This document shows positions 23-39,921 of a stretch of 64,000 nt of DNA, piece after piece; the stretch's first letter is position 1; every line of letters starts with the position of its first letter. The notes under the pieces are model-generated. The model was given only the letters and a program-made list of their open reading frames with translations. It made no database searches and was not told the origin of the DNA. The position numbers and the translations under genes were made by a program. The DNA is from Eledone cirrhosa (Eukaryota): contig OZ024757.1 of assembly GCA_964016885.1 (NCBI GenBank), positions 12,152,001-12,216,000 on the forward strand, written 5' to 3'.

Positions 23-3000
23 ATATATTAGAAAGATCGAGTATCGAAAAATCGGCGCACGAGTTCACGATAAACGAAATTCGATATGAGCGGCAGAGGG
101 CTCAATAATTCAGATGAATCAGAGCTATAACTATCGTTAAAATACCGTCACATATAGAACAAGTCTACAATCAACCATACGATTTAAAATCGATAGAGGA
201 AGATTCGGGCCAAACAGATAAAAAATATCAATAAAACAATACGTCAATAATTTAAATGAATGTAAAATCATACCCGGACCCACTAGACAGGTGTTAAATC
301 TAGCTTCATGGGTTTCTGTAAATCCTTAGACTGTACTCTATCAGCTCACATATAAATATAAAAGCCTACTAGAGTAAGCGGAACGGAGGTTTACTTTCTC
401 AACGAGTTTTTTCCTGGCGGCAGAGGAGCCAACTACCAGTGAAAAACGCACATGGCATTAGACAAGGGAGATGACCCCTATATCCGCGAAAACAATTCGA
501 GTGAATGTGGAAATACACATATCGAATTAGAGTGCTCAATAGACATGTTAAAATAAAACAAAAGCTATTCATCACTCAATAGAATCGACAAAAAATGAGC
601 AATAAAATTAACTGGTGGATAGCTATGTCCAGAGCTAAATATATTAGAAAGATCGAGTATCGAAAAATCGGCGCACGAGTTCACGATAAACGAAATTCGA
701 TATGAGCGGCAGAGGGCTCAATAATTCAGATGAATCAGAGCTATAACTATCGTTAAAATACCGTCACATATAGAACAAGTCTACAATCAACCATACGATT
801 TAAAATCGATAGAGGAAGATTCGGGCCAAACAGATAAAAAATATCAATAAAACAATACGTCAATAATTTAAATGAATGTAAAATCATACCCGGACCCACT
901 AGACAGGTGTTAAATCTAGCTTCATGGGTTTCTGTAAATCCTTAGACTGTACTCTATCAGCTCACATATAAATATAAAAGCCTACTAGAGTAAGCGGAAC
1001 GGAGGTTTACTTTCTCAACGAGTTTTTTCCTGGCGGCAGAGGAGCCAACTACCAGTGAAAAACGCACATGGCATTAGACAAGGGAGATGACCCCTATATC
1101 CGCGAAAACAATTCGAGTGAATGTGGAAATACACATATCGAATTAGAGTGCTCAATAGACATGTTAAAATAAAGCAAAAGCTATTCATCACTCAATAGAA
1201 TCGACAAAAAATGAGCAATAAAATTAACTGGTGGATAGCTATGTCCAGAGCTAAATATATTAGAAAGATCGAGTATCGAAAAATCGGCGCACGAGTTCAC
1301 GATAAACGAAATTCGATATGAGCGGCAGAGGGCTCAATAATTCAGATGAATCAGAGCTATAACTATCGTTAAAATACCGTCACATATAGAACAAGTCTAC
1401 AATCAACCATACGATTTAAAATCGATAGAGGAAGATTCGGGCCAAACAGATAAAAGATATCAATAAAACAATACGTCAATAATTTAAATGAATGTAAAAT
1501 CATACCCGGACCCACTAGACAGGTGTTAAATCTAGCTTCATGGGTTTCTGTAAATCCTTAGACTGTACTCTATCAGCTCACATATAAATATAAAAGCCTA
1601 CTAGAGTAAGCGGAACGGAGGTTTACTTTCTCAACGAGTTTTTTCCTGGCGGCAGAGGAGCCAACTACCAGTGAAAAACGCACATGGCATTAGACAAGGG
1701 AGATGACCCCTATATCCGCGAAAACAATTCGAGTGAATGTGGAAATACACATATCGAATTAGAGTGCTCAATAGACATGTTAAAATAAAACAAAAGCTAT
1801 TCATCACTCAATAGAATCGACAAAAAATGAGCAATAAAATTAACTGGTGGATAGCTATGTCCAGAGCTAAATATATTAGAAAGATCGAGTATCGAAAAAT
1901 CGGCGCACGAGTTCACGATAAACGAAATTCGATATGAGCGGCAGAGGGCTCAATAATTCAGATGAATCAGAGCTATAACTATCGTTAAAATACCGTCACA
2001 TATAGAACAAGTCTACAATCAACCATACGATTTAAAATCGATAGAGGAAGATTCGGGCCAAACAGATAAAAAATATCAATAAAACAATACGTCAATAATT
2101 TAAATGAATGTAAAATCATACCCGGACCCACTAGACAGGTGTTAAATCTAGCTTCATGGGTTTCTGTAAATCCTTAGACTGTACTCTATCAGCTCACATA
2201 TAAATATAAAAGCCTACTAGAGTAAGCGGAACGGAGGTTTACTTTCTCAACGAGTTTTTTCCTGGCGGCAGAGGAGCCAACTACCAGTGAAAAACGCACA
2301 TGGCATTAGACAAGGGAGATGACCCCTATATCCGCGAAAACAATTCGAGTGAATGTGGAAATACACATATCGAATTAGAGTGCTCAATAGACATGTTAAA
2401 ATAAAACAAAAGCTATTCATCACTCAATAGAATCGACAAAAAATGAGCAATAAAATTAACTGGTGGATAGCTATGTCCAGAGCTAAATATATTAGAAAGA
2501 TCGAGTATCGAAAAATCGGCGCACGAGTTCACGATAAACGAAATTCGATATGAGCGGCAGAGGGCTCAATAATTCAGATGAATCAGAGCTATAACTATCG
2601 TTAAAATACCGTCACATATAGAACAAGTCTACAATCAACCATACGATTTAAAATCGATAGAGGAAGATTCGGGCCAAACAGATAAAAAATATCAATAAAA
2701 CAATACGTCAATAATTTAAATGAATGTAAAATCATACCCGGACCCACTAGACAGGTGTTAAATCTAGCTTCATGGGTTTCTGTAAATCCTTAGACTGTAC
2801 TCTATCAGCTCACATATAAATATAAAAGCCTACTAGAGTAAGCGGAACGGAGGTTTACTTTCTCAACGAGTTTTTTCCTGGCGGCAGAGGAGCCAACTAC
2901 CAGTGAAAAACGCACATGGCATTAGACAAGGGAGATGACCCCTATATCCGCGAAAACAATTCGAGTGAATGTGGAAATACACATATCGAATTAGAGTGCT

Positions 3001-3263
3001 CAATAGACATGTTAAAATAAAACAAAAGCTATTCATCACTCAATAGAATCGACAAAAAATGAGCAATAAAATTAACTGGTGGATAGCTATGTCCAGAGCT
3101 AAATATATTAGAAAGATCGAGTATCGAAAAATCGGCGCACGAGTTCACGATAAACGAAATTCGATATGAGCGGCAGAGGGCTCAATAATTCAGATGAATC
3201 AGAGCTATAACTATCGTTAAAATACCGTCACATATAGAACAAGTCTACAATCAACCATACGAT
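23..3263. repeat. 616-bp tandem array, ~5.26 near-identical non-coding units, flanked by (TA)n
   Basis: GAAAGATCGAGTATCG recurs at 31, 647, 1263, 1879, 2495 and 3111 (period 616); only two substitutions noticed (1174, 1456); no ORF. Confidence 0.97.
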
Positions 3264-3549
<286 letters not shown>

Positions 3550-6500
3550 CGGACAAATGAAAATAAAAATAAAAATAACAGCAAAAACAAAAACCATAAC
3601 CTACATAAAAATAACCACTACCACAGTCACCAACAGTCTCCTAAACAGGAAACTTCTTCCTCTTTTTTAGCCATAATGAATGTGGCAAAAGAACTGGAAA
3701 AAAACATTCGAGCTATCACCCAGTACCACCCTCCACCATCACCCCACTGCACAAACTCCCATTGCTGCCATTAACAAACAAACAAATTAACAACACACCA
3801 AAACAATTAAAACCAACCACTCTCACCTCAACATTTTTGCTTAACGCCCAAGGCATCAGCCCTTCCACCAATACTTAAAAATGGAAGATCAAATTCCTGG
3901 AGGACTGGATTGATGTCCATCCAAACCACATCCCTTTCTTCGTCCTCACTGTAAACCATCTCAGTAACCTCCATTTGGAAGCCGAGGTGAAAGTGAAAAA
4001 TTTCAAAGCCATCCGTGCTGATCGAACTGGCAGAAGAAAGGGTGGGACTGCCATTTATGTCCATAATTCTTTCTCAACAGAGGCTATGAACATATTTACT
4101 AATGGATACTGCGAAGCAGTCACTGTATTCAGTAAAACCAACAACCTAATAGTAGTTGGGCTCTATAGGCCACCCCAAACGCCTCTACCATGCTTCAAGG
4201 AATGCCTCAACAGCATAAAGTGTTTCATCCAAGAGTGTCACCCTAACAACATCTTAATGATGGGGGACTTCAACCTCCCTAGAGTTGACTGGTCCACAAA
4301 CAGCCTGCCACCAGGTTCTTCTGCCTCAACCTTTGACAGGGAAGCAGTGAAATCGCTTCTTGACGTCATGGATGATTTCTTCCTGTCCCAAATGGTGCTC
4401 GAACCAACGAGGTGCCACAAAAACGTCCTAGACTTAATTTTCAGCAATCACACTGACACTATCCACAATATTGCAGTGGAGAAAACTCTACTCTCTGATC
4501 ATGACATGGTTCTCTGTGATCTGAGATTCCACCGTCCAATATACAAACCCAATGTCATCTCTCCTGTCCATCCGTTTGATGCTATGGATTTCTACAATGC
4601 AAACTGGGAAGCGATCAGTCATAATCTTGCACATGTCGACTGGTCCTTCACTCACAATCACACACCCACTAACTTCAAAAAGTCCTGGCAGACATTTGTG
4701 GACACTGTTACACACATATGTCAAAAACACACCCCATTAAGAACTATAAACAAATCTAAGAGCAGAATCCCTAGAAATAGAAAAACGCTCATCAGGAAAA
4801 TTAAGAGAACTAACAAAAAAATCAACAAGCTGAAATACTGTCAGCAGGAACACATCAACTTGACTGCCATGTCATCACTAGAGATTAAAAAACATAACCT
4901 CCAAAACAATATGTCTATCATCAACAATCAGAGAAGAGCTGAAGAGGCCTGGGCCATTGAGAAGATCAAACTCAATCCCAAAGTGTTCTTTTCATTTGCA
5001 AAAAAACACAAAATCACTGGCTCTACTGTTGGCCCTCTAATTGATGAAAATGGCACTCTTCAAGACAATGCTAAAACCATGGGTGAGATACTGCAGAAAC
5101 AATACTGCTCTGTTTTCAGCAATCCTGATATGGCCGATCTGGACTGTATCGGGGATGTTACCCCCATTACACCTTATCGGACATAACGTTTGGCGCCCTT
5201 GATGTCTTAGCGGCAATAAAGGAAATCAAGCATAATTCAGCAGTAGGTCCCGATAGGTTCCCTGCTTGTGTCTCGAAGGCTTGTCAACACCAACTTGCAT
5301 CTTCTCTTGCCAATCTGTGGCGGAACTCACTGGATGCTAGATATGTGCCAGAAAACCTTCTATCCCAGTCTGTTGTCCCAGTTTTCAAAAAAGGAAACAA
5401 ATCCCTTGCCGTGAATTACCGTCCAATCTCACTCACCTCTCATATCATTAAGGTATTTGAGAGAGTGGTGAGATCGCAAATGACTCACTTCCTTGAGAGT
5501 AACAATATATGCTGAACTCCAACCAGCATGGATTCCGTAATGGAAGGGATTGCCTGACGCAGCTACTACATCACTTTGATGACATTTTGAGAGCCTTGGA
5601 AGAGGGTTCCAACACTGATGTTATCTACCTTGATTTCAGCAAGGCATTTGACAGGGTTGATCACAACATTCTACTGAAAAAGCTGTCCAATATTGGTGTC
5701 ACTGGAAAGCTGCTGCGGTGGATCAAGAGCTTCCTGTCAAACAGAACCCAACATGTTGTAGTCGAAGGAGTCAAATCCAGCCCAGCCAAAGTCAGTAGTG
5801 GGGTCCCACAAGGCACTGTGTTGGGCCCACTTCTCTTCATCATCTATATTAATGACATCACTGACATCATCAAACACAGCAACATTAAAATTTTCGCTGA
5901 TGATTCCAAGCTCCAAAAGGTCATCAAGGACGTGGATGACAGGTTAAGCCTTCAGTCAGACCTACTGGCTGTTACTCAATGGGCGGAAAAGAACAACATG
6001 TTACTGAACGAAGACAAATTCGAACTGATCCACTTTGGAAAAGAGGATGCTCTGAAACTCCCGTACTCCCTTCCCATCAGAGACTTGGGAGTAACCGTGG
6101 ACAGCAACATAAGCTGGGCCACGCATATAAGCAGCAAAGTTGACATGGCCCGCAGAATGTGTCCTGGATCCTCAGAACCTTCCAGTCGAGAGATTCCCAC
6201 ACCATTATCCTTCTCTTCTCCACTTTTGCCCGACCACACCTTGAATACTGTTGTCCACTGTGGTCTCCCCACACGAAACAAAGTATCATGAAACTTGAAG
6301 ATTCCCAAAGGGCAATCACGAAAAAGATAGATGGCATGTCAGACCTTGACTAGAAAAGCTGACTAGAAAAGCTGAAACTTTACTCACTCCAACGTCGCCG
6401 TGAGCGTTATATTATCTGCATGATGTGGAAAATATTTCATCAGCACTGCCCAAATGATGTTGGTATCACCTTCAAAATACACCCAAGGCTTGGGCCCCTT

Positions 6501-7315: not shown

Positions 7316-7537
7316 ATATATAGCTTTCACCGTATTTTTGACTAAAGGAATTTTAGCTTGATAACGGGGTTTAGAACCCTCAGATAAATGGAAAAAGATG
7401 AGTATTGACGTACATGGGAGTCGAACCCACATCTGTGGTTATCGCGACCACTGTGCTACCATTACACCAACACATCACCCATCTATTTCCATCAAGCTAA
7501 AATTCCTTTAGTCAAAAATACGGTGAAAGCTATATAT
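7316..7537. repeat. 47-bp perfect inverted repeat (7316-7362 / 7491-7537) enclosing a tRNA-like cloverleaf
   Basis: ATATATAGCTTTCACCGTATTTTTGACTAAAGGAATTTTAGCTTGAT and its exact reverse complement. Confidence 0.9.
7406..7476 (-). tRNA. tRNA-like cloverleaf (pseudo-tRNA or tRNA-derived head; CGA at anticodon position, atypical loop)
   Basis: GATGTGT-TG-GTGT AATGGTA GCAC-A-GTGGT CGCGATA ACCAC-AGAT-GTGGG TTCGACT CCCAT-GTACGTC-A; A and B boxes present; loop lacks U33 and purine 37. Confidence 0.6.
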
Positions 7538-16001: not shown

Positions 16002-17415
16002 ATATTGTTATACTTTGGGAGGGTCATGTTGCCAATAAGAAACACACGCACCACTTGCTTTCACTTCAATTTATTATATATTTATAAATTTACAAATTTA
16101 TAAATTTATGGTTGGTTGGTTGGTTCCAACCAGATAGTTGTTTATATATAGTCATAGTTCTTTCGTCACACCCTCTGTGACCTCTTCAGTGACTGGGGAT
16201 TCCTTTCTTTGTTTCTGTGCCTCTCCTTTGTTCTGTCCTACGCCATTTTGATTCTGTGTGTGTGTTGTGCGCTCAGTCTGCGCATGCGCCACATCCGGGT
16301 GTCTGTGTGTGTTTATGTTCATTTATCTATTTGTTTATTTACATGTTACTGGTTGGTTGTTTGTTCCATGTGTGTGTTTTCATTTTGTCATTAATTGTAA
16401 GTTGTGATGTTGCTGTTCCACTCATATTTTCTATTTAATTTTGGTTGTAATTCTTTTATGTTTATTGCCTCTGTAATTTGTCTAAACATTGCGTCTTTTC
16501 TGTGTGTAGATTCTATTTTTATTTCTATGTTCTCTAATTTACCCTTGTGTTCTATCTTAGCATGTTGGTAGAGTACAGATGATTCTTTATTATCTTGAAG
16601 GTCTCGCCAGTGTTCATTTAGCCGTTCCCCTACACTACGAGCTGTCTCACCTATGTACACTATATTTTTGTCTCTACATTGTCCTTCAGTACATCTTATG
16701 CTATACACTACATTTCTAGTTTTACAGTTAATATGGGGGCTTATTTTACAGGTTACACATTTCTTATCTATACATGAGGGTCTTTGAAAAGGGTATGTCT
16801 TGCTAATAAGTGTTTTTACGGAGGTATCTGGTCTTTCTACTATCTTAATATTGAGTTTATGTTTATTTAGGGCCCTTCTAAATTTGTAAGCTAGTTCACC
16901 GCTAGGGGTTGTATCGATGAACATTACACTCTGGTATTTATTGCTATCATACCATGAGTTTATTCTATTAGCCTTGTTCCTAGTTCTTTCTATTCTATTC
17001 CAAAATTTGCTCCTATACAAGTTGCAGGTCCCATTTATGTCATTATTTACCATTTTTTCCCATTTGGTTCTGGCTCCTCTATACACTCTGATTCTATCTC
17101 TCTGATTGTAGCCAGAGAACTGCATACGGTGGATGAAGTGTTGTATGTGTCTCTCTAGTTCTTCGGGGTTGCACATGCGGGACACATTTCTCATCACCCG
17201 CATCAATTCCGCAATCAGTATGTTGATTTTGGTATGGTCCGAAATGGCCGAGTTTCGGTGGATCAGATGTTTGGAAGTCATGGGTTTGGCATAATGGGAA
17301 TGGAGGATTTGTTTTTTGTTGTTAATGGTATCTAACCAGAGCTCTGTGTCTAGTACAGGTAATCGATTGTTGGGGTGTTTACTTGGGTAGTCTATAGTAA
17401 CTCTAATGCTCTGGT
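16002..17415 (-). mobile_element. PLE family A (Nematis-like) 3' part: RT thumb, GIY-YIG, pLTR
   Basis: ORF 16391-17281: CVTC...NCKTRNVVYSIRC...VYIGETARSVGERLNEH...RQITEAINI. Confidence 0.88.
16150..16194 (-). ncRNA. Type I hammerhead ribozyme, family A
   Basis: AGTCA-CTGAAGA-G-GTCACA GAGGG TGTGAC-GAAA-GAAC-TA-TGACT. Confidence 0.85.
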
Positions 17416-19279
17416 TTACACCAATACCATCAACACCGACGTTAGAAGATTATAACTCACCAAAACACAAGCAGATAGGCTAAAACGAACATTAATTCTA
17501 AACATAAAAAAGAAGATCTATAGAGAATTAAGTCATTAAGAAAAACATAAGCGTAACCTAATACAAGAAATAGCTAGGATCACCACACCAAGAGAGAAAC
17601 TAATATTTATAAGCCTTATACGCCCTGAAGAACAGTACATTACTCAAGAATGTGATAAGCACTTTAACAAGAAACTAAAGTGGCTTAAGCAGATAAAGCT
17701 AAATCAGGATACTATAGAGAATACCAATAGATATCCCGACAAAATTGACGGTATAAATATGGCCGACACCTCATTAACATAAGAGTTCAACAACAACAAC
17801 ACAAATATATATGGTAACGCAAGAATAGATAATGACGAAATGTTTGTGTTATGTTTACCCCCGAAATTTGCGACATTCAAGAAGGTAAATATGATTAGTT
17901 GTCTGTCAGAAATAGAAAAATCATTTACAAAACTACGCTGGAGCATCAAAAACAAAAACAAAAACAAAAGCAACAATATACGAACACACATATACAACAC
18001 ACATCCCAACAACAACAGACACACAGACACAAACAACAATAACAACAACACACACATCAACAACAACAACAATAACAACATACCCAGAAACAACAACAAC
18101 AGACACGCAGACACAAACAACAATAACAACACACACAACAACAATAACACACACGGAGACAACAACAACACACATCAACAACAGCACACATCAACAACAA
18201 CAACACACACGCATTCAATGCCTCTCACCACCACCACAATCTTAACAAACACACAGACACAGAAAACAAGTAATGACAGTAGCACAGAAATCACAGAAAT
18301 AAGGGAAAGTAATAGGATTAAAAGGAGAAGGGAGACTAAGGACAAAGAGAATAACCAAGACGAACACAGAGACACACAAAATAGGGTAGATAACAACAAT
18401 GAGCCAGTGGAAAGAGACAGGAGTAATTACGAGAGACATAGAAACAACCATGAGGCTGTTGGTGGAAATAGAAATAGAAACAACACAATTAACAATAACA
18501 ATAGCACTAGTACACATAAAGCAGCAGCCTGGAACTCTCCGTTTTATAATCCCTCCGATAAATCATTCGACCTGCGACGAGTCCACGCCACGACTTTACC
18601 ATTTAACAAACGCACGCAATTGCCGTCGCAGGTCGATGAACAAACAGAAGCACAATTTAGTATAGCTAGATCCGAACTTAGAAATATTATAGAACAGTAT
18701 AACAAGAAGCATTATAGAATGGAGGCCCAGCAACTGGGAGAAAAATCTGTAAATGGCTTGCGTAAGCTCATGCAGCGCTCACGTAATGGAGAGATAGCAT
18801 GCTTTCCAACAGACAAGTCTGGCAGAATGTCGGTTGACAGCCTGCCAAACTACATCCAGGCAATCCAACCCCACATCACTAACACAAGAGAGGTAACACC
18901 ACAGAAGCATGAGGATAGAGAAAAAGCCCTCAATGCCCATATGCTGATGTGGACGAATATAATGCAGCCCAACAAAAGGACTGCCAACGACTTCCAGGCC
19001 TGGAACAATGACGTGCCGGCGTTGTATGGGCTTCGAAAAGACCATAAAACGGGCTGTGACCCTGTCGCGGGACCACCAACACGGCCAGTCTGTGGAGCTA
19101 ACATTGCTAGTAACTACAGACTGTCCTACTTCCTCTCCCTGATCATACGCCTCATCATTGAAATGTCCCCAGATGTATGTGACAGCACGGAGGACCTCCT
19201 CAGCAGAATCAGCGTGAGTAACCGATCTGGGGACCTAACAAACTGCATAATAGGCAGTATGGATGTTGTGTCCCTGTAT
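17416..19279 (+). mobile_element. PLE N-terminal/RT 5' half (probably family A), ending at RT motif A
   Basis: ORF 17840-: LPPKFA, PTDKSGRM, LYGLRKDHK, RPVCGA, GSMDVVSLY, then (TA)n; the same frame continues upstream with stops. Confidence 0.8.
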
Positions 19280-19445: not shown

Positions 19446-19581
19446 TATATATATATATATATTAATAAGAGGAATTCCAACTTTGTCTGATTTACTCGTT
19501 TTATTTACAATCCTTTAAAATATATATAATATGGTATTATAATGAAATAGTATGATAGTATATTAAATTCTAAGTGTTAAT

Positions 19582-19620
19582 TGAACAAGTACTTTCATGC
19601 TTTCGCAATCTTCAGGTTCA
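19582..19620 (-). ncRNA. Type I hammerhead ribozyme, family D
   Basis: TGAAC-CTGAAGA-T TGC GAAA GCA T-GAAA-GTAC-TT-GTTCA. Confidence 0.85.
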
Positions 19621-19926
19621 TGATATGTGGTGACAGTCGAGTTTGCAATTTTCAACTGTAATGAGATGGGTAAATTTACTACCTTTTATACATTTTATAC
19701 AGAGAAAAGTGGCTCCAGAATGCAAAGCCCTGTAAACTGTATTTCGACCAATCAGTGTGTAGTTTCACTGAATTACTACAGCTGATTGGTTTAAGCGTCA
19801 CGGCTGGTTGAGCATGCTAACGTCCAATAGTCATACCCAACGTATCAATTGTTTTGCTTTTTGAAATGATGAAAATAGCATTTTCTATTAATCATCACCA
19901 TCAACATCACTTTTATTATTATTATT

Positions 19927-19989
<63 letters not shown>

Positions 19990-20036
19990 AGTGGTCGTGA
20001 TCATAGTGGTAGTAGAAGTAATACCCCTAGGCGTTA

Positions 20037-21944
20037 TTATTGTTCATTTAGCTTGGGTTTGAATTTATCAATAAAATTCTTTTCTTTGATTTTTCTCTTG
20101 ATTTCACTTGGGCTGTGTAATTTGTAGAATGGGAATATTATAAATATTCCCTGACCACATGTTGCCAGGTGGCCGCTTAGGTGTATCTGACGGACATTTG
20201 GGTCTCTGATTTGTTGACGGTGTACCCGTGCACGTTCCGATAGTGCATTTCCAGTTTGACCGACATATAGTTCTTCACAATTCGGGCATTTAATGCAGTA
20301 AATTAGATTTCTGCTTTTGCAGTTCATATTTGCATTTGGGAATATTTTTCCAGTTTTTGTTTTCATATATTGACCGGCGTGTATGGATTGACATGTGCCG
20401 CATCGATTATCATTGCATTTAGATACAGTGAATGATTGGTCTTTGTTGTTAAGGTCAAACTTTGCTTTTGTTAGCAATTGCTTCAAATTTTTTGGCTGTC
20501 TTTTACTAAGAGTCAAAGATCGATCTGTGATTAAGCCTTTTAATTCATTACTTTGAGCAATGATCGGTAGGTTTGCTTTGGCAGTGTTGAATATATTCTG
20601 GTGACATGGGTTGTGTGTCATTATAAATGGTATGACCAGTTCTTGGTTTCTTCTTCCTTGGGTTGTTCTAAGTTGTTGTATAGGTATTTTTATAGCCCGC
20701 TGTATGCCATTTTCTATAAGTAGAGATGGGTATTTTTGTTTGAGCAAAAATTCTCTTAGTTCTGTTAGGCGTTTGTACCTGGTATTCGTCTCTTCTACAA
20801 TGGTACAAATTCTTCTGGCTAGGCAGTATGGGATGTTGCGTTTTGTATGAGGTGGATGGCACGACTTAAAATTCAGATATTGATGGGTGTCTGTGTGTTT
20901 ATAATATATATCCGTGGTAATGGTGGTGTCGTTTTTGATTATCATTATATCTAGGAATGGTAATTTGGTCCTACTCATCTCTTTTGTGAATTGGAGAGAT
21001 GGGTGTAGGTTATTCAGGAGGATATTGAACTCATCCAGAGTATCTAGAGATTCTGTCCAGATGATGAAACAGTCGCCAAGGTATCTCTTCCAAGATTTTT
21101 CAATGTATTTTCTAAAGTCAGTACTATATTTTTCCTCTATTTCTTGGTAGAGTTGTTCTAAGTATCCCATTACAGAGTTCGCGTAAACGGGAGCAAACTT
21201 CGTTCCCATCGCTGTGCCTCTAATTTGGATGTAATTCTTTCCATTGAAGAAGAAAGTGTTGTTTTCCAGAATAAGTTTAACTGCGTCTAATATAAATGGC
21301 GCTGTGAATCTAATGGGAATCACTTCTCTATGTTTTTCCACCCAGTATTTAACCGCCTTTATTCCTAAATCATGTGTAATGTTGGTGTAAAGGCTTACCA
21401 CATCAAAACTGAGTAGAAGTGAATTCGTTTCCGTGGTTTTGGGAAGATGGGACAGGAAGTCGATATCATCCCGGATGAAACTGGGTATGTGAATACATAG
21501 TGGTTTCAAAATAATGTCAACAAAATTGCTTAGACGGTGAGTGGGGCATGTTGGACCAGCTATAATAGGTCTAAGTTTTAAGTCTTTTGGGTGTAATAAT
21601 TTAATGTACTCACTGTTTTGTTCTCTTACTGCCAGTTGTATTTCTTTTGACTTGTGAACTTTCGGTAGGCCATACAGGTTGCTGGGTTTCGGCTCAAAAT
21701 TGGTGATGTAGTCTCTTTCCTTATCAGTAAATGAGTTGTGGTATTTTGAAGCCAGGTTGTTGATCTTCTTCATGATGTTGTGGTCTATATTTGACGGTAT
21801 TTCATGATAGAATGTTGTGTCTTTCAGTTGTTCCTCAACCAAATCCTTGTAGTATTCAGTATCCATTATAACAACTGCACCCCCTTTATCTGCTTGTTTA
21901 ATTATTATTGTTTTATCATTTTGTATACGTTTAAGTGCAGACAT
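20037..21944 (-). CDS. PLE reverse transcriptase + GIY-YIG endonuclease (catalytic YLDD mutated to YLGD in this copy; upstream part frameshifted)
   Basis: 635-aa ORF; the inverted copy at ~23878 retains TAC CTT GAC GAC (YLDD). Confidence 0.85.
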   Translation of the reverse strand: MSALKRIQNDKTIIIKQADKGGAVVIMDTEYYKDLVEEQLKDTTFYHEIPSNIDHNIMKKINNLASKYHNSFTDKERDYITNFEPKPSNLYGLPKVHKSKEIQLAVREQNSEYIKLLHPKDLKLRPIIAGPTCPTHRLSNFVDIILKPLCIHIPSFIRDDIDFLSHLPKTTETNSLLLSFDVVSLYTNITHDLGIKAVKYWVEKHREVIPIRFTAPFILDAVKLILENNTFFFNGKNYIQIRGTAMGTKFAPVYANSVMGYLEQLYQEIEEKYSTDFRKYIEKSWKRYLGDCFIIWTESLDTLDEFNILLNNLHPSLQFTKEMSRTKLPFLDIMIIKNDTTITTDIYYKHTDTHQYLNFKSCHPPHTKRNIPYCLARRICTIVEETNTRYKRLTELREFLLKQKYPSLLIENGIQRAIKIPIQQLRTTQGRRNQELVIPFIMTHNPCHQNIFNTAKANLPIIAQSNELKGLITDRSLTLSKRQPKNLKQLLTKAKFDLNNKDQSFTVSKCNDNRCGTCQSIHAGQYMKTKTGKIFPNANMNCKSRNLIYCIKCPNCEELYVGQTGNALSERARVHRQQIRDPNVRQIHLSGHLATCGQGIFIIFPFYKLHSPSEIKRKIKEKNFIDKFKPKLNEQ

Positions 21945-22908
21945 TTCTGATTTGTTAATGTTTGGCCTAACATTAGTATTATGTCTAAGAAGAAATTTAG
22001 ACAGGATGTCAATGTATTGGTCGAGATAAATATTTCTTCCTTTTGGCGGAGTGAAATTTGATTTATTCTTTACTAGTGATTCATCACTCTCATTATTTTT
22101 ATCAGCGAAGAATTCTACAAGACGTAATTTTCAACAGAATTCTTGGGTATCCTCCTTCAGTTCTTGGTGGTTGACTGTTGGAGTCGGTGTGAATTTCAGT
22201 CCTTTTGACAGAATTTGCATTTCATCATTGTCAAGATCTCTTTTAGATAAATTAATTATTTTAGGATCTACGTGTACAGCTGTTTTGGGTATGTTTCCTC
22301 CTGGAGTTTTTCTTTTTCCGGTTTTTGTTGTCCTGACGTTAAAAAATGAATTTTTCTCTGTTCAGGATTTATATTCCTGTTGGTGTTCGCTTGATGAACT
22401 TTTGGTCGTGATATTATATTTGGTTTCGTTATGTATTTTGTCCTATTTTTGGTATTCTGTATATTATTTTTCTCCCTGTTAGCATTATTTTTAACAATCT
22501 GGGAAAATGACCTAGGTTTGCTTTCAGGTTTAGATCGTTTTTTCGTCCAGTTTCTTGTGGGCAATCTCTGTTGAGATCTTGAGAGTGATCTGGTTATTCT
22601 ACGTTTTGTTTCCACATTCCTTGTTGGTAGTCTCTGTTGAGATCTTGAGAATGATCTCCTGGTTGTACTACTTCTCATGGTCTGGTCAAAGGAATACCTA
22701 TCGTGTTTGTGCTTTTTGTTCATGTTGTGTGCGATAGGGTGTTTTTTGTAGAAAAAGCGAAGACTTATTACCGTAGTTCTTCTTTGATTCAAGGTAAGGT
22801 GAGTGTTTGTGTTGGTACGTGTTCTGGCGTATGTTGTGTTGATGAGATTGTCCACTTTTAATGCTTTTTCTCAGGGTTCCAGAGTCTTTACCGTAATTTG
22901 CAGCATAT

Positions 22909-23613
22909 TCATCGAGAAATAATTGTTTCTGCTGCCATACCTTTCTTGATTTGTTTTCTTCTTTTGAGATATCTCCGATCCATAGTTCTCGTAGTTTTTC
23001 TAATACCAGTCGTTAGCTTTGAAATTTCAACTTCAATTTGGTCATCAATAGCTTCATATTTGGCTTTGTAGCGGGATTGTTTACATTCAGAAATGGAGAT
23101 GACGGTCCTGAATTTTGTCAATGTAAGTTCCCATCGGAGTTTTGTTTCTTCTTCTGGTTCTCCTGCAATTTCTGTAATTAGGTATTTACGAGGGAGTATG
23201 GGTGCCGTTAGAGAGAGCCATTTCGAATGTGTTTCGACATATTTTTCGCATCTGTATGCTTTCCAGAAATTTTGTTTTCTTATGTTAAGGAATTTTTTCC
23301 ATGTCTTCCACATTTCTTTTCTTATTCGATGTGTTTTGTTTTCCAAATTTCTTTCGTTTATTTCTGACATCCAAGGGGGTTGTGGTAGGCTTTCTCTTGT
23401 ATCTTTGATAGCTGTTGGTACAATTTCAGCTAAATTCTTAATTTCAGAGTTTATATGTTCAGTTATAAGTTTTCCGTCTGTAGATTGTTTTTCTATTTCC
23501 TTTAAAATAGAGGATTGTGTGTCCATCATCGTGATAAGTGTTGATAATTTCGATGATATCTCCTTTAGAATTCTTTCTGATTCTGTTGGTTTCATTTGTT
23601 GCTTTCCAGACAT
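22909..23613 (-). CDS. Upstream helical/coiled-coil ORF of PLE-D (N-terminal extension or ORF1)
   Basis: ATG right after the 5' pLTR; 234 aa, heptad-like ILKEISSKLSTLITMMDTQSSILKEIEK. Confidence 0.5.
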   Translation of the reverse strand: MSGKQQMKPTESERILKEISSKLSTLITMMDTQSSILKEIEKQSTDGKLITEHINSEIKNLAEIVPTAIKDTRESLPQPPWMSEINERNLENKTHRIRKEMWKTWKKFLNIRKQNFWKAYRCEKYVETHSKWLSLTAPILPRKYLITEIAGEPEEETKLRWELTLTKFRTVISISECKQSRYKAKYEAIDDQIEVEISKLTTGIRKTTRTMDRRYLKRRKQIKKGMAAETIISR

Positions 23614-25090
23614 GTTGGCATATACACAATAGGAATATATATATAGATATAGATAGGTAAATATACACGGGTGTGTATGATTGTGTATAGAAGATTATAT
23701 TAATAAGAGGAATTCCAACTTTGTCTGATTTACTCGTTTTATTTACAATCCTTTAAAATATATATAATATGGTATTATAATGAAATAGTATGATAGAATA
23801 TTAAATTCTAAGTGTTAATTGAACAAGTACTTTCATGCTTTCGCATTTAGAAGTACATTGAAAAATCTTGGAAGAGATACCTTGACGACTGTTTCATCAT
23901 CTGGACAGAATCTCTAGATACTCTGGATGAGTTCAATATCCTCCTGAATAACCTACACCCATCTCTCCAATTCACAAAAGAGATGAGTAGGACCAAATTA
24001 CCATTCCTAGATATAATGATAATCAAAAACGACACCACCATTACCACGGATATATATTATAAACACACAGACACCCATCAATATCTGAATTTTAAGTCGT
24101 GCCATCCACCTCATACAAAACGCAACATCCCATACTGCCTAGCCAGAAGAATTTGTACCATTGTAGAAGAGACGAATACCAGGTACAAACGCCTAACAGA
24201 ACTAAGAGAATTTTTGCTCAAACAAAAATACCCATCTCTACTTATAGAAAATGGCATACAGCGGGCTATAAAAATACCTATACAACAACTTAGAACAACC
24301 CAAGGAAGAAGAAACCAAGAACTGGTCATACCATTTATAATGACACACAACCCATGTCACCAGAATATATTCAACACTGCCAAAGCAAACCTACCGATCA
24401 TTGCTCAAAGTAATGAATTAAAAAGCTTAATCACAGATCGATCTTTGACTCTTAGTAAAAGACAGCCAAAAAATTTGAAGCAATTGCTAACAAAAGCAAA
24501 GTTTGACCTTAACAACAAAGACCAATCATTCACTGTATCTAAATGCAATGATAATCGATGCGGCACATGTCAATCCATACACGCCGGTCAATATATGAAA
24601 ACAAAAACTGGAAAAATATTCCCAAATGCAAATATGAACTGCAAAAGCAGAAATCTAATTTACTGCATTAAATGCCCGAATTGTGAAGAACTATATGTCG
24701 GTCAAACTGGAAATGCACTATCGGAACGTGCACGGGTACACCGTCAACAAATCAGAGACCCAAATGTCCGTCAGATACCCCTAAGCGGCCACCTGGCAAC
24801 ATGTGGTCAGGGAATATTTATAATATTCCCATTCTACAAATTACACAGCCCAAGTGAAATCAAGAGAAAAATCAAAGAAAAGAATTTTATTGATAAATTC
24901 AAACCCAAGCTAAATGAACAATAATAACGCCTAGGGGTATTACTTCTACTACCACTATGACCACGACCACTAACAACAACAATAACAACAATAATAATAA
25001 TAATAAAAGTGATGTTGATGGTGATGATTAATAGAAAATGCTATTTTCATCATTTCAAAAAGCAAAACAATTGATACGTTGGGTATGACT

Positions 25091-32110: not shown

Positions 32111-34183
32111 ATTTCGTTTCTGAATTTGTTTAGCAAGATTCTTTATCTGAAATCGTGTGTTGAAACCGATATTGTTATACTTTGGGAGGGTCATGTTGCC
32201 AATAAGAAACACACGCACCACTTGCTTTCACTTCAATTTATTATATATTTATAAATTTACAAATTTATAAATTTCTGGTTGGTTGGTTGGTTCCATCCAG
32301 ATAGTTGTTTATATATAGTCATAGTTCTTTCGTCACACCCTCTGTGACCTCTTCAGTGACTGGGGATTCCTTTCTTTGTTTCTGTGCCTCTCCTTTGTTC
32401 TGTCCTACGCCATTTTGTTTCTGTGTGTTTGCTGTGCGCTCAGTCTGCGCATGCGCCACATCCGGGTGTCTGTGTGTGTTTATGTTCATTTATCTATTTG
32501 TTTATTTACATGTTACTGGTTGGTTGTTTGTTCTATGTGTGTGTTTTCATTTTGTCCTTAATTGTAAGTTGTGATATTGCTGTTCCACTCATATTTTCTA
32601 TTTAATTTTGGTTGTAATTCTTTTATGTTTATTGCTTCTGTAATTTGTCTAAACATTGCGTCTTTTCTGTGTGTAGATTCTATTTTTATTTCTATGTTCT
32701 CTAATTTACCCTTGTGTTCTATCTTAGCATGTTGGTAGAGTACAGATGATTCTTTATTATCTTGAAGGTCTCGCCAGTGTTCATTTAGCCGTTCCCCTAC
32801 ACTACGAGCTGTCTCACCTATGTACACTATATTTTTGTCTCTACATTGTCCTTCAGTACATCTTATGCTATACACTACATTTCTAGTTTTACAGTTAATA
32901 TGGGGGCTTATTTTACAGGTTACACATTTCTTATCTATACATGAGGGTCTTTGAAAAGGGTATGTCTTGCTAATAAGTGTTTTTACGGAGGTACCTGGTC
33001 TTTCTACTATCTTAATATTGAGTTTATGTTTATTTAGGGCCCTTCTAAATTTGTAAGCTAGTTCACCGCTAGGGGTTGTATCGATGAACATTACACTCTG
33101 GTATTTATTGCTATCATACCATGAGTTTATTCTATTAGCCTTGTTCCTAGTTCTTTCTATTCTATTCCAAAATTTGCTCCTATACAAGGGGCAGGTCCCA
33201 TTCATGTCATTATTTACCATTTTTTCCCATTTGGTTCTGGCTCCTCTATACACTCTGATTCTATCTCTCTGATTGTAGCCAGAGAACTGCATACGGTGGA
33301 TGAAGTGTTTTATGTGTCTCTCTAGTTCTTCGGGGTTGCACATGCGGGACACATTTCTCATCACCCGTACCAAATCAGCAATCAGTATGTTGATTTTGGT
33401 ATGGTCCGAAATGGCCGAGTTTCGGTGGATCAGATGTTTGGAAGTCATGGGTTTGGCATAATGGGAATGGAGGATTTGTTTTTTGTTGTTAATGGTATCT
33501 AACCAGAGCTCTGTGTCTAGTACAGGTAATCGATTGTTGGGGTGTTTACTTGGGTAGTCTATAGTAACTCTAATGCTCTGGTGGATGGAGTTTGCTATTT
33601 ACTGGATGCTTTCCATTGTGTTTTTCTCTAGTTCCTGACTGTTCTCTAGTGGGGGTGTCTTAACTACGATGTTTATATCATCTACGTATCGGGAGTACAT
33701 TATCAGGGTTAAGGGGTCTTCTAATTGTTCTTTAAGTTTAAGTTTAAGTCTACTGTCCCACCATACCATGAATAAGTTAGCTATGTCGCCTGCAATGCTA
33801 ACACCCATGGCTGCTCCTTCCTCTTGGGCATATGTTTTTCCATTAAATTTGAACATATGTTCCTTAAGGGTTAGTTTTATGCTGGCTCCTACCGCATGTG
33901 CAATCATTTTCTTCAGTTCATCGTGGTTTTCGGGTGTCTGTATGGCTCTGTTCCACCCGTTCCATCTATCTGTGTGGGTTTTCTTGGCCATTGAGGTAAT
34001 GGTAGGTGGTCTGCCTCTTGCTGGCCTTGTAGGGCACAGGTTTCTAAGGTCATATGTGTTTGGTAACTATTACTATCGGTAAGCTTAAGTAGGAGTCCCA
34101 GCTCACCGGTATCAATCCCACGGAACTCAACCTTGCTCTCACTGATCATTTCTACGCATTTCTCCACAGCAAAATCCACGTCT
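32111..34183 (-). mobile_element. PLE family A 3' half (RT motifs B/C, GIY-YIG, pLTR)
   Basis: [10 protein letters not shown]..., QEEGAAMGVSIAGDIANLFM, SRYVDDI (33599-33991); GIY-YIG ORF 32558-33448. Confidence 0.9.
32317..32361 (-). ncRNA. Hammerhead family A
   Basis: Same motif as 16150-16194. Confidence 0.85.
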
Positions 34184-35740: not shown

Positions 35741-36916
35741 ATGGCTAACCAGCAAAAATCCAAACAGAACTGGTCTGATAATGAAATCGACATTCTAATA
35801 AACACATGACATTGCCTTTCCCAAACTGAAGACATACATGCTTCATCTCTGAACGACATTGCTAAACGTACAGTTCAATTTTTGAAAACTCGATCTGAAC
35901 AACAGATTCAAAATAAATTAAAGCAAATCGAAATTGCTTTTAAATTAATCAATAAACATTTGGATAAACTACGGTGTGTTTTCTCTTCGAATGCTGTCCA
36001 GCAGCAGCAACAACAACAACAGCAGCTACAACAGCAACAACAACAACAGCTACAACAACAACATCAACAACAGCTACAACAACAACATCAACAACAGCAA
36101 CAACAACAACAACGACAACAACAGTGTGAACCACTCCTTGATTCATCAACAATGGCCGATCTACTAAATGAAACTATTGACCCCCCAGTAGCCTCTGTCT
36201 CACAGCATGAAACGCCACATCCTTTCTCTGGCCCAGCAGTCCAATCATCACCACTGCCAACATCTCTGCCTACTACTACTACTACTACTACAACATTTTT
36301 GTCTACTGCTATGTCAAGGAATTTACCTTCTAATACCAGAACAAGAACTCTCCCTCCCACAGTCCACAAAGGTCGTCAAATCCTACCCAAACCATCATCT
36401 ACACCTCTCACAACACCCACACCCACATACCCACCCACTCGAAACCCCATCATTTGCCGCTACTCTCTACGCTATAGAATATGTACGGATAGTGGCTGCA
36501 AATTCACCCATTTACCTAGGACAAAACGATCTATCCCCACAAACAGCCACCACCATAATACATACTCTAATTTAACACCAACACAACCACCAATAACTCA
36601 AACAAGGAATCCACAAATCTGCCGTTTTTCCCTGCGAGACAGATTGTGTTTAGACCGGGATTTTCCCTTTACCCATCTCCCGGGGACCCGTCGGATAAAT
36701 GAAAATAAAATTAAAAATAAAAGCAAAAACAAAAACCATAACCTACATAAAAATAACCACTACCACAGTCACCAACAGTCTTCTAAACAGGAAACTTCTT
36801 CCTCTTTTTTAGCCATAATGAATCTGGCAAAAGAACTGGAAAAAAACATTCGAGCTATCACCCAGCACCACCCTCCACTATCACCCCACTGCACAAACTC
36901 CCATTGCTGCCATTAA
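35741..36916 (+). pseudogene. LINE ORF1: Myb/SANT-like domain, polyQ, two CCCH zinc fingers; one premature TGA at 35807
   Basis: MANQQKSKQNWSDNEIDILINT*H...RSEQQIQNKLKQI, in frame with ORF 35882-36916; CRYSLRYRICTDSGCKFTH and CRFSLRDRLCLDRDFPFTH. Confidence 0.72.
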
Positions 36917-39900
36917 CAAACAAACAAATTAACAACACACCAACACAATTAAAACCATCCACTCTCGCCTCTACATTTTTGCTTAACGCCCAAGGCATCA
37001 GCCCTTCCACCAATACTCAAAAATGGAAGATCAAATTCCTGGAGGACTGGATTGATGTCCATCCAAACCACATCCCTTTCTTCGTCCTCACTGAAACCCA
37101 TCTCAGTAACCTCCACTTGGAAGCCGAGGTGAAAGTGAAAAATTTCAAAGCCATCCGTGCTGATCGCGCTGGCAGAAGAAAGGGCGGAACTGCCATTTAT
37201 GTCCATAATTCTTTCTCAACAGAGGCTATGAACATATTCACTAATGGATACTGTGAGGCAGTCACTGTATTCAGTCAAACCAACAACCTATTAGTAGTTG
37301 GGCTCTATAGGCCACCCCAAACGCCTGTACCATGCTTCAAGGAATGCCTCAACAGCATAAAGTGTTTCATCCAAGAGTGTCACCCTGACAACATCTTAAT
37401 GATGGGGGACTTCAACCTCCCCGGAGTTGACTGGTCCACAAACACCCTGCCACCAGGTTCTTCTGCCTCAACCTCTGACAGGGAAGCTGTGGAATCGCTT
37501 CTTGACTTCATGGATGATTTCTTCCTATCCCAACTAGTGTTCGAACCAACGAGGTGCCACAAAAACGTCCTAGACTTAATTTTCAGCAATCACACTGACA
37601 ATATCCACAATATTGCAGTGGAGAAAACTCTACTCTCTGATCATGACATGGTTCTCTGTGATCTGAGATTCCACCGTCCAATATACAAACCCAATGTCAT
37701 CTCTCCTGTCCATCCGTTTGACGCTATGGATTTCCACAATGCAAACTGGGAAGCGATCAGTCATGATCTTGCACATGTCGACTGGTCCTTCACGCACACT
37801 CATACACCCACTAACATCAAAAAGTCCTGGCAGACATTTGTGGACACTGTTACAAACATATGTGCTAAACACACCCCATTAAGAACTATAAACAAATCTA
37901 AGAGCAGAATCCCTAGAAATAGAAAAACGCTCATCAGAAAAATTAAGAGAACGAACAAAAAAATCAACAAGCTGAAATACTGTCAGCAGCAACACATCAA
38001 CTTGACTGCCATTTCATCACTAGAGATTAAAAAACATAACCTCCAAAACAATATGTCTATCATCAACAATCAGAGAAGAGCTGAAGAGGCCTGGGCCATT
38101 GAGAAGATCAAACTCAATCCCAAAGTGTTCTTTTCATTTGCAAAAAAACACAAAATCACTGGCTCTACTGTTGGCCCTCTAATTGATGAAAATGGCACTC
38201 TTCAAGACAATGCTAAAACCATGGGTGAGATACTGCAGAAACAATACTGCTCTGTTTTCAGCAATCCTGATATGGCCGATCTGGGCTGTATCGGCGATGT
38301 TACTCCCCATTACACCTTATCGGACATAACGTTTGGCGCCCCTGATGTCTTGGCGGCAATAAAGGAAATCAAGCATAATTCAGCAGTAGGTCCCGATAGG
38401 TTCCCTGCTTGTGTCTTGAAGGCGTGTCAACACCAACTTGCTTCTCCTCTTGCCAATCTGTGGCGGAACTCACTGGATGCTGGATATGTGCCAGAAAACC
38501 TTCTATCCCAGTCTGTTGTCCCAGTTTTCAAAAAGGGAAACAAATCCCTTGCCGTGAATTACCGTCCAATCTCACTCACCTCTCATATCATTAAGGTATT
38601 TGAGCGAGTGGTGAGATCGCGAATGACCCACTTCCTTGAGAGTAACAATATGATCAACTCCAACCAGCATGGATTCCGTAATGGAAGGGATTGCCTGACG
38701 CAAATACTGCATCACTTTGATGACATTTTGAGAGCCTTGGGAGAGGGTTCCAACACTGATGTTATCTACCTTGATTTCAGCAAGGCCTTTGACAGGGTTG
38801 ATCATAACATTCTACTGAGAAAGCTGTCCAATATTGGTGTCACTGGAAAGCTGCTGCAGTGGATCAAGAGCTTCCTGTCAAACAGAACCCAACATGTTGT
38901 AGTTGAGGGAGTCAAATCAAGCCCAGCCAAAGTCAGTAGTGGAGTCCCACAAGGCACTGTGTTGGGCCCACTTCTCTTCATCATCTATATTAATGACATC
39001 TCTGACATCATCAAACACAGCAACATTAAAATTTTCGCTGATGATTCCAAGCTCCAAAAGGTCATCAATGGCGTGGATGACCGGATAAGCCTTCAGTCAG
39101 ACCTACTGGCTGTTACCCAATGGGCAGAAAAGAACAACATGTTACTGAACGAAGACAAATTCGAACTGATCCACTTTGGAAAAGAGGATGCTCTGAAACT
39201 CCCGTACTCCCTTCCCTCCGGGGAAACTCTCGTGGCATCTAACAACATCAGAGACTTGGGAGTAACCGTGGACAGCAACATAAGCTGGACCACGCATATA
39301 AGCATCAAAGTTGACATGGCCCGCAGAATGTGTTCCTGGATCCTCAGAACCTTCCAGTCGAGAGATTCCCGCACCATTATCCTTCTCTTCTCTACTTTTG
39401 CCCGACCACACCTTGAATACTGTTGTCCACTGTGGTCTCCCCACACGAAACAAAGTATCATGAAACTTGAAGCTCCTCAAAGGGCAATCACGAAAAAGAT
39501 AGATGGCATGTCAGACCTTGACTACTGGGGTCGATTGGAAAACCTGAAACTTTACTCACTCCAACATCGCCGTGAGCGTTATATTATCTGCATGATGTGG
39601 AAAATGTTCCATCATCACTGCCCAAATGATGTTGGCATCGCCTTCAAGATACACCCAAGGCTTGGGCCCCGTGCTATCCGTCCCATTCAAAAATCTAAAT
39701 CGCAACTCATAACAACAATACGGCACAATTATTTCACCTCAATCGGCCCTGCTCTCTTCAACATCACACCAGGACACGTCAAAACAAAAACTGACCACAC
39801 AAAATTCAAGAAGTCTTTGGACAAATTCCTCCAAGTAATCCCGGACAAACCACCCACACCCGGATATGTCTCCGCAAACAGTAATTCTCTTCTCGAATGG

Positions 39901-39921
39901 GCCATGGTGCCCAAATCCTGA
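36904..39921 (+). CDS. LINE ORF2, APE endonuclease + reverse transcriptase, uninterrupted (1005 aa)
   Basis: LNAQG, LTETHL, GDFN, SDH; [37 protein letters not shown]. Confidence 0.95.
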   Translation: MLPLTNKQINNTPTQLKPSTLASTFLLNAQGISPSTNTQKWKIKFLEDWIDVHPNHIPFFVLTETHLSNLHLEAEVKVKNFKAIRADRAGRRKGGTAIYVHNSFSTEAMNIFTNGYCEAVTVFSQTNNLLVVGLYRPPQTPVPCFKECLNSIKCFIQECHPDNILMMGDFNLPGVDWSTNTLPPGSSASTSDREAVESLLDFMDDFFLSQLVFEPTRCHKNVLDLIFSNHTDNIHNIAVEKTLLSDHDMVLCDLRFHRPIYKPNVISPVHPFDAMDFHNANWEAISHDLAHVDWSFTHTHTPTNIKKSWQTFVDTVTNICAKHTPLRTINKSKSRIPRNRKTLIRKIKRTNKKINKLKYCQQQHINLTAISSLEIKKHNLQNNMSIINNQRRAEEAWAIEKIKLNPKVFFSFAKKHKITGSTVGPLIDENGTLQDNAKTMGEILQKQYCSVFSNPDMADLGCIGDVTPHYTLSDITFGAPDVLAAIKEIKHNSAVGPDRFPACVLKACQHQLASPLANLWRNSLDAGYVPENLLSQSVVPVFKKGNKSLAVNYRPISLTSHIIKVFERVVRSRMTHFLESNNMINSNQHGFRNGRDCLTQILHHFDDILRALGEGSNTDVIYLDFSKAFDRVDHNILLRKLSNIGVTGKLLQWIKSFLSNRTQHVVVEGVKSSPAKVSSGVPQGTVLGPLLFIIYINDISDIIKHSNIKIFADDSKLQKVINGVDDRISLQSDLLAVTQWAEKNNMLLNEDKFELIHFGKEDALKLPYSLPSGETLVASNNIRDLGVTVDSNISWTTHISIKVDMARRMCSWILRTFQSRDSRTIILLFSTFARPHLEYCCPLWSPHTKQSIMKLEAPQRAITKKIDGMSDLDYWGRLENLKLYSLQHRRERYIICMMWKMFHHHCPNDVGIAFKIHPRLGPRAIRPIQKSKSQLITTIRHNYFTSIGPALFNITPGHVKTKTDHTKFKKSLDKFLQVIPDKPPTPGYVSANSNSLLEWAMVPKS

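Follow-up and report, generated by a model that had tools for sequence, protein, structure and literature searches.

A probable retrozyme-type insertion with a predicted variant hammerhead ribozyme in the genome of Eledone cirrhosa

A stretch of 64,000 nucleotides (nt) from Eledone cirrhosa (contig OZ024757.1, positions 12,152,001 to 12,216,000; hereafter the window) opens with a tandem array of near-identical 616-nt units, and it raises the question of what kind of element this is and how it was copied into place. An original prediction, made from the letters of the window, had described the array as a single recent insertion of a retrozyme-like unit, produced by reverse transcription (RT) around a circular RNA and mobilised by a Penelope-like element (PLE). 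The recent insertion, the retrozyme-like nature and the link to PLEs are supported by the present analysis. We regard it as very probable that the array is a retrozyme-type element. The fuller account, in which a dispersed protein-free element with a hammerhead on its minus strand was inserted after a PLE enzyme had copied a circular RNA five times round, is in our judgement likely.

The array consists of five units and 161 nt (5.26 units) with a period of 616 nt. At a lag of 616, 2566 of 2570 positions are identical, compared to 628 to 812 at lags of 600-629, and there are exactly two substitutions (window positions 1174 and 1456), as had been noticed at the outset. The GC content of the unit is 36-38%. 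Equally correct were the observations that the array contains no open reading frame (ORF), its longest stop-free frames being 40 amino acids (aa) on the plus strand and 62 aa on the minus strand, and that both ends fade into (TA)n, which borders the array on both sides. The unit folds better than its dinucleotide shuffles, with z-scores of -3.75 on the minus and -3.0 on the plus strand (-3.8 and -2.1, respectively, when folded as a circle). Seven of the nine hairpins originally proposed reach -5.5 to -11 kcal/mol when folded on one or both strands, whereas those at 180-192 and 318-336 are marginal alone; the hairpins at 278-313, 318-336 and 371-399 proved to be mirror images or parts of stems II and III of the ribozyme described below. 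An assembly artefact, which had been named as a possible refutation, is very unlikely, since 39 distinct arrays occur across many contigs and the unit-to-unit junction was found in contigs of two of four public sequencing runs.

The unit belongs to a dispersed family rather than a local satellite, as the original prediction held. In the 3.0-Gb genome, 582 candidate places were found for it, and the 40 that were scored yielded 40 arrays, 39 of them distinct and 1.0 to 13.4 units long; about 160 copies were examined individually. An 18-nt core pattern has 5,055 exact genome matches versus one for its control. The diverged relative at 41373-41592, from which dispersal had first been proposed, is 71% identical to the window unit over 197 nt (E=7e-17), and 13 full units compared with one another are 572-620 nt long, 52-98% identical and have a fixed end in common. 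Circularly permuted endpoints had been expected. Instead, the left end lies at window-equivalent positions 23-29 in 38 of the 39 arrays, whereas the right ends are spread over the unit, and many copies are shorter than one unit. Genome-wide, the fixed-end junction has 2,512 matches in the closest subfamily group; in the other subfamilies it has 1,884 on one strand, the forward count there being inflated by overlapping matches. A fixed end combined with variable 5' truncation is the pattern of target-primed reverse transcription; the RNA is therefore likely to correspond to the minus strand and to have been copied from a fixed internal start. A TA tract is present at the left flank of 35 and at the right flank of 33 of 38 arrays. 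An interrupted repeat of at least 25 nt was found on both flanks of 6 of the 38 arrays versus 1.3% of mismatched pairs, a signal that periodic microsatellites can mimic.

In our structural model, each full unit carries on its minus strand a variant type I hammerhead that is predicted to cut itself (Table 1). The statement that there is no canonical hammerhead thus stands in part: Rfam returned only a tRNA in the 64-kb window at the gathering threshold, and nothing meaningful, including no hammerhead, on the unit at E values up to 10, but the variant form had been missed. The motif was first seen in a minus-strand alignment of 22 units, partly chosen on half the motif, and its conservation was measured in a set of 43 copies selected solely by their fixed end. 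Nine core positions are on average 99.5% conserved in this set versus 77.5% for other columns (U4 and A6 in 42 copies each; G5, A9, G12 to A15.1, U16.1 and C17 in all 43), and N7 is occupied by all four bases. Pairing in the stems amounts to 94-95%, and their 15 and 27 two-sided changes were equalled in none of 500 shuffles; slid controls gave 15-51%. These two-sided changes are confined to stem II, which covaries. Over the unit, 10 of 33 pairs covary on the minus strand and 3 of 24 on the plus strand. For window 267-414 on the minus strand (148 nt), the minimum-energy and centroid folds are both the three-stem hammerhead, and a relaxed descriptor matches once per full unit, at four ordinary minimal hammerheads of a PLE family elsewhere in the window, and nowhere on the reversed window.

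Several features of the motif weigh against an active ribozyme. The core is off consensus, positions 3 and 8 being U-A in 30 copies, U-G in 12 and a C-A mismatch in one; with U3 in 42 of 43 copies and an invariant extra A between 11.1 and G12 in 43 of 43, the motif departs from the canonical C3-G8 hammerhead. The pair G10.1-C11.1, found in 37 copies, is broken in six, and such changes as occur in stems I and III are one-sided. The stability of the ribozyme segment by itself is unremarkable (z -1.5), and 41 of 139 non-core columns are likewise at least 97% conserved. U3-A8 is known as a natural covariation that is active in vitro (PMC3088659), and both U3-A8 and an unpaired base after A9 have been reported for PLE hammerheads (PMC4209133). 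An alternative core at window 340-347, a CUGA-like word within stem II, was rejected as not conserved; HDV-like, twister and pistol folds showed no fit by eye against their consensus, and none emerged via Rfam. A hammerhead present in thousands of copies can escape Rfam and probably C3-G8 descriptors too, so that such elements may be undercounted.

Genomic copies also end where the hammerhead is predicted to cut. Among 50 consecutive insertions on contig C1, 45 of which have a closed end, ends were sorted into 20-nt bins relative to the cut; 11 of 62 passes end at -16..+3 versus 31 of 1426 in the other bins (Fisher p=4e-7), and more AT-rich bins are without a pile-up. In other subfamilies (40 loci), 6 of 29 end in the same bin, and among the 41373 copy and its closest relatives (30 in all), 21 stop just before the cut. 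Counting by hand the 37 loci with ends at -2..+11, we found nine ends at 0, four at -1 and none at -2, +1, +3, +4 or +5. A loose genome-wide pattern for exact-cut ends was dropped because its control exceeded the signal; with tighter patterns, an exact-cut end followed by TA occurs at 11 places, of which 10 are family members, and at none three bases further. Short stutter repeats accompany near-cut ends at five loci (L032, L045, L046, L051 and L059). The pile-up just short of and exactly at the predicted site suggests cleavage in vivo, and an RNA 5' end at the cut is its simplest reading, with a stall at stem III as the rival. On the strength of these copy ends, self-cleavage in vivo appears quite likely. 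It has to be weighed against this that the -16..+3 bin was picked after the first pile-up had been seen, that a second end peak lies at +44..63 (5 of 45), and that most of the 37 near-cut ends (24) fall beyond the site, usually where there is A/T microhomology; moreover, in a recent study, only one of nine tested retrozyme dimers cleaved in vitro (Li 2026, bioRxiv 10.64898/2026.07.22.740005). Further end peaks at +164..183 and +324..343 (subfamilies B-E) were mostly artefacts of partial reference units, and the exact-cut end at L165, which is joined to another repeat by a jump or a deletion, was not used as evidence.

The window array runs through five cut sites, and its template was thus not one cut monomer. 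Differences per unit pair average 1.6 within arrays (198 pairs) and 5.9 between arrays (741 pairs), the 20 multi-unit arrays fall into 14 haplotypes, and of 64 non-shared variants a single one is found again in a different array. The variant list of internal passes contains no insertion at the cut or ligation point. One circular template per insertion would fit these array-specific haplotypes, and a homogeneous parent transcript would fit them equally. Reverse transcription around a circular RNA, as originally proposed, is the best fit, and we give a circular template moderate preference. Two observations speak against it: L061 and L091 have variants in non-adjacent units, which is impossible from one monomer circle, and uncut RNA was the chief PLE substrate in vitro (Frangieh 2024, PMC11167929).

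The same element could, with the same PLE priming, have produced its long arrays from uncut linear multimers, unequal exchange later restoring their length. The in vitro preference for uncut RNA (PMC11167929), the non-periodic variants in L091 and L061, which fit a heterogeneous parent, and the 14-18-unit arrays available as possible parents all agree with this, and a homogeneous young parent would yield an identical picture. However, successive rounds of such copying could only shorten arrays, yet multi-unit copies span the subfamilies compared above (52-98%), and the single recurrence among the 64 non-shared variants is in another register; we hold copying from linear multimers to be rather unlikely. 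Template jumps would be expected to leave extra bases. Arrays assembled by repeated jumps of the PLE enzyme between cut linear monomers would account for the cut-ended copies, the stutter repeats near the cut and one PLE-retrozyme chimera, but the listed internal passes have no cut-point insertions and each array has a single haplotype although 14 exist, which makes this origin very improbable.

Another possibility is that the hammerhead fold serves to bind protein and cuts weakly or not at all, and that copies end near it because reverse transcriptase stalls at the helices. The non-consensus core would agree with such a role, as would the poor in vitro cleavage of minimal hammerheads from metazoan PLEs (PMC4209133), and a halt in front of stem III would place the end at +1, a single base from the cut. 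However, the nine ends at 0 are matched by none at +1, the predicted blocking helix has no pile-up (0 of 65 at -76..-57), and invariant catalytic positions around a free N7 match selection for catalysis, U3-A8 itself being active in vitro (PMC3088659); stalling is thus an improbable explanation. Least credible of all is a DNA-level repeat, either a satellite amplified by recombination or a rolling-circle element of the Helitron type. The near-identical tandem units suit it, as do the common variants of a few adjacent units, but it is contradicted by the fixed end with variable truncation, the many copies under one unit, the strand-asymmetric RNA structure with its hammerhead core and the ends piling up at an RNA cut site. 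The 3' signature of Helitrons is also not kept across subfamilies.

According to the reading we prefer, copying of a circular RNA by a PLE enzyme, a genomic array would be transcribed on its minus strand, and the nascent ribozyme would fold and cut once per unit to give 616-nt monomers, which a ligase would close into circles. A 5-mer about 65 nt downstream would then capture stem I and prevent re-cutting of the circle. A Neptune-like PLE protein would nick (TA)n and start RT at the fixed site about 250 nt downstream of the cut; a linear template already cut would give copies that terminate at the cut or shortly before it, and a circular one would let the copy extend over 1 to more than 13 units to a variable stop.

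The blocking 5-mer of the proposed off-switch is kept at four or five of its five positions in 22 of 22 aligned units. For the window unit, the predicted probability of stem I is 0.69 before the 5-mer strand is made and 0.00 after, and in 13 of 13 folded circles it is at most 0.02. The specific blocking helix is dominant in only some circles (0.00-0.99), and the nascent fold favours stem I (probability at least 0.5) in only 9 of 13 units, which weakens the case. The 5-mer is thus predicted to block the ribozyme within the circle. According to Cervera 2020 (PMC7229834), the ribozyme is predicted to remain unblocked in most animal retrozyme circles; the strand described here would suggest one way in which an animal circle could escape being cut again by its own ribozyme.

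The genome is rich in potential partners, with 10,596 GIY-YIG candidates, 150 of which were scored. In the co-resident PLEs a hammerhead is followed by a (TA)n end downstream of the cut. Two Neptune-like families, PLE5 and PLE6, have U3-A8 cores, and in PLE5 extra bases flank both sides of stem II. The PLE6 copies are 96-98% identical, their 3' end has 13 nt in common with the fixed end of the 616-nt subfamily, and their longest frame (938 aa, L444) is without a few residues found in sister copies. For one PLE, RT has been shown to begin at fixed positions inside the RNA, downstream of the hammerhead, and the element was shown to cut AT-rich DNA (Frangieh 2024, PMC11167929). Other results argue against a firm assignment. 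A profile search of 50 PLE loci found no DNA homology to the retrozyme, beyond a 7-nt suffix and TA the 3' ends are not significantly similar (z at most 2.3), and sister subfamilies have different ends. At one locus assembled twice (L075 and L094; G000:C2 near 10653170, and C1483), a PLE4 3' end that includes its hammerhead region is joined directly, in the same sense, to a 4.8-unit array that starts at unit position 132, a join that reflects a template switch or a deletion; direct same-sense joins of this kind occur at two loci among 391 flanks. A PLE ORF beside L148 was set aside, being an insertion of its own that lies behind a TA/TG tract. No single PLE stands out by chimeras, homology or alignment of the 3' ends, and PLE6 can be named as the partner only tentatively. 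We are similarly doubtful of the most far-reaching interpretation, a long-lived superfamily of ~600-nt, viroid-sized circular RNAs with a switchable variant hammerhead overlooked by standard screens, mobilised by an identifiable Neptune-like PLE; it would have left in a single genome a fossil record of the full retrozyme cycle, made up of a fixed start site of PLE type, copies that end where the RNA cuts itself, and multimers from one template each. If it were true, rolling-circle target-primed RT could be reconstituted with a natural enzyme-circle pair, and the youngest subfamily would mimic the 3' end of that PLE.

By its testable sequence features, the family would be classed with the animal non-LTR retrozymes. 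Its head-to-tail units are dispersed and non-coding, with one type I hammerhead fold (of variant core) per unit; GC is below 50%, the ends pass straight into (TA)n without a long terminal repeat (LTR), as judged without a separate search for a primer-binding site or polypurine tract, and PLEs with hammerheads reside in the same genome. The unit contains no ORF for reverse transcriptase and GIY-YIG, such as an autonomous PLE would have, and PLE proteins gave no match to 22 units by tblastn; the arrays of 1 to ~18 dispersed units with one fixed end form no large clustered blocks of the satellite kind. In the published accounts (Cervera 2020, PMC7229834; Li 2026, bioRxiv 10.64898/2026.07.22.740005), animal retrozymes likewise comprise non-coding tandem units with a type I hammerhead each, GC below 50% and no LTR, dispersed as monomers to multimers beside co-resident PLEs. 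The units here are large but not unprecedented (572-620 nt, compared to 150-450 bp in Cervera and consensus lengths of 51-972 bp in Li). Unlike the retrozymes described there, the present family has a U3-A8 core of the PLE type, a ~77-nt stem II flanked at either side by extra bases, a stable stem III with predicted action as a monomer, a conserved blocking strand, strict (TA)n targeting and a fixed 3' end. Homology to PLE pseudo-LTRs was reported for 21 of 57 Xenopus-matched transposable elements or families and is thus not universal (Li 2026, bioRxiv 10.64898/2026.07.22.740005).

The PLE pseudo-LTR hammerheads of Cervera 2014 (PMC4209133) resemble the motif in their 5-bp stem I, the unpaired base between 9 and 10.1, the G10.1-C11.1 pair and, in Cercyon elements, U3-A8. 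In metazoan PLEs the motifs are of the minimal type and function as dimers, their stem III being palindromic; stem III is long here, as it is in the PLE variants of fungi and protists. The additional base preceding G12 is not described in the available part of that source, but occurs in PLE families of this genome. The Poseidon PLE of Anolis (Frangieh 2024, PMC11167929) also starts at a fixed point inside its RNA, downstream of the hammerhead, targets AT-rich DNA, and leaves tandem and partial-tandem copies. Poseidon is autonomous and has an ORF, and its start was observed in vitro ~90 nt from the cut, whereas the 200-250 nt for the present family derives from where insertions end. Head-to-tail multicopy insertions are also formed by non-autonomous PLEs of the Chlamys type, for example MRC1 (Craig 2021, PMC8557442), and the Chlamys clade targets microsatellites; however, these elements resemble their autonomous partner at the 3' end, whereas no partner homology was found here, and most Chlamys elements are without hammerheads, whereas the ribozyme is the best-conserved part of the present family. 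Searches of the literature available to us found no account of this family or of retrozyme insertion ends at the cut site, although similar cores or sizes may appear in the supplements to Cervera 2014, Cervera 2020 and Li 2026. In published work the movement of animal retrozymes, including the circular template, the PLE enzyme and the role of cleavage, has been put forward as a hypothesis; this family offers genomic footprints for each step and a young subfamily that is 99-100% identical.

Table 1. Features of the array and its relative, in window positions
Feature	Position	Strand	Basis or remark
Whole insertion, 5.26 head-to-tail 616-nt units	23..3263	- (RNA sense inferred)	Strand from ribozyme orientation and end pattern
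Fixed 3' end, inferred RT start, merging into (TA)n; the 13-mer is also the PLE6 3' end	23..35	-	38/39 arrays
5-mer complementary to stem I 3' strand, predicted blocker, in every unit	206..210	-	
Variant type I hammerhead (predicted), unit 1	272..407	-	Alignment, fold, descriptor
Stem I (5 bp), 5' strand and 3' strand	407-403, 276-272	-	
Core U3-U4-G5-A6-N7-A8-A9	402-396	-	
Unpaired extra base after A9	395	-	
Stem II, ~77 nt, closed by G10.1-C11.1	394-318	-	
Extra base (A) before G12	317	-	
G12-A13-A14-A15.1	316-313	-	
Stem III	313-278	-	
C17	277	-	
Predicted self-cleavage, between 277 and 276	276..277	-	Hammerhead geometry and genomic copies ending there
Repeats of the predicted cut	893|892, 1509|1508, 2125|2124, 2741|2740	-	
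Hammerhead copies (predicted), units 2-5	888..1023, 1504..1639, 2120..2255, 2736..2871	-	Descriptor
Incomplete sixth unit with the variable 5' end, stopping ~93 nt before the next cut site	3103..3263	-	
(TA)n target microsatellite	3262..3549	.	Also left of position 23 and past the window edge
5'-truncated sister-subfamily copy, ~600-nt unit, same fixed end, stopping ~8 nt before the cut	41373..41592	-	

A sister subfamily with a 615-nt unit forms arrays of 14 to ~18 units, longer than those of the 616-nt subfamily (G000:C1:13091185-13100457, 36024314-36033586, 44273969-44282011 and 49829828-49841194). In pattern scans of metagenome contigs (at least 119 stretches) and viral contigs (9), the matches look like chance; the RNA model found one weak match (23 bits) on 100 metagenome loci and none on the viral loci, and the profile two weak matches. 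Six public runs (X2-X7) with four organism labels contain 59-79% of the sampled words of the unit, and among the 40 of 56 differences listed, those within the core fall on N7 and the unpaired base.

The window itself holds several PLE copies. One family, seen at 16005-17449(-) and 32130-33598(-) and near 62357(-) and 62992(+), has a classic minimal C3-G8 hammerhead that precedes its (TA)n 3' end by ~160 nt; an optional tail occurs, and the window holds four copies of the motif. At 19460-24924, a near full-length PLE on the minus strand is accompanied upstream by a second copy that is inverted and 5'-truncated; in the hammerhead-like motif of the element, a 3-bp stem II is flanked on either side by extra bases. 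A 5'-truncated PLE4 with GIY-YIG at 41623-42610(+) adjoins the sister retrozyme copy in the opposite sense, the two probably having had a common TA target.

Among the remaining features, an APE-type non-LTR retrotransposon with a stop-free frame of 1044 aa lies at 36787-39921(+), and a broken second copy at 3879-6291(+) stands just right of the array. Frames at 45353-47121(-) resemble, by their motifs, a Helitron Rep/Pif1 helicase remnant. The Rfam tRNA match at 7406-7476(-) scores 44 bits and is possibly the head of a short interspersed element. An abundant TA-targeting repeat of ~250 nt, often a fold-back palindrome, was seen at the flank of L132 and at many other loci.

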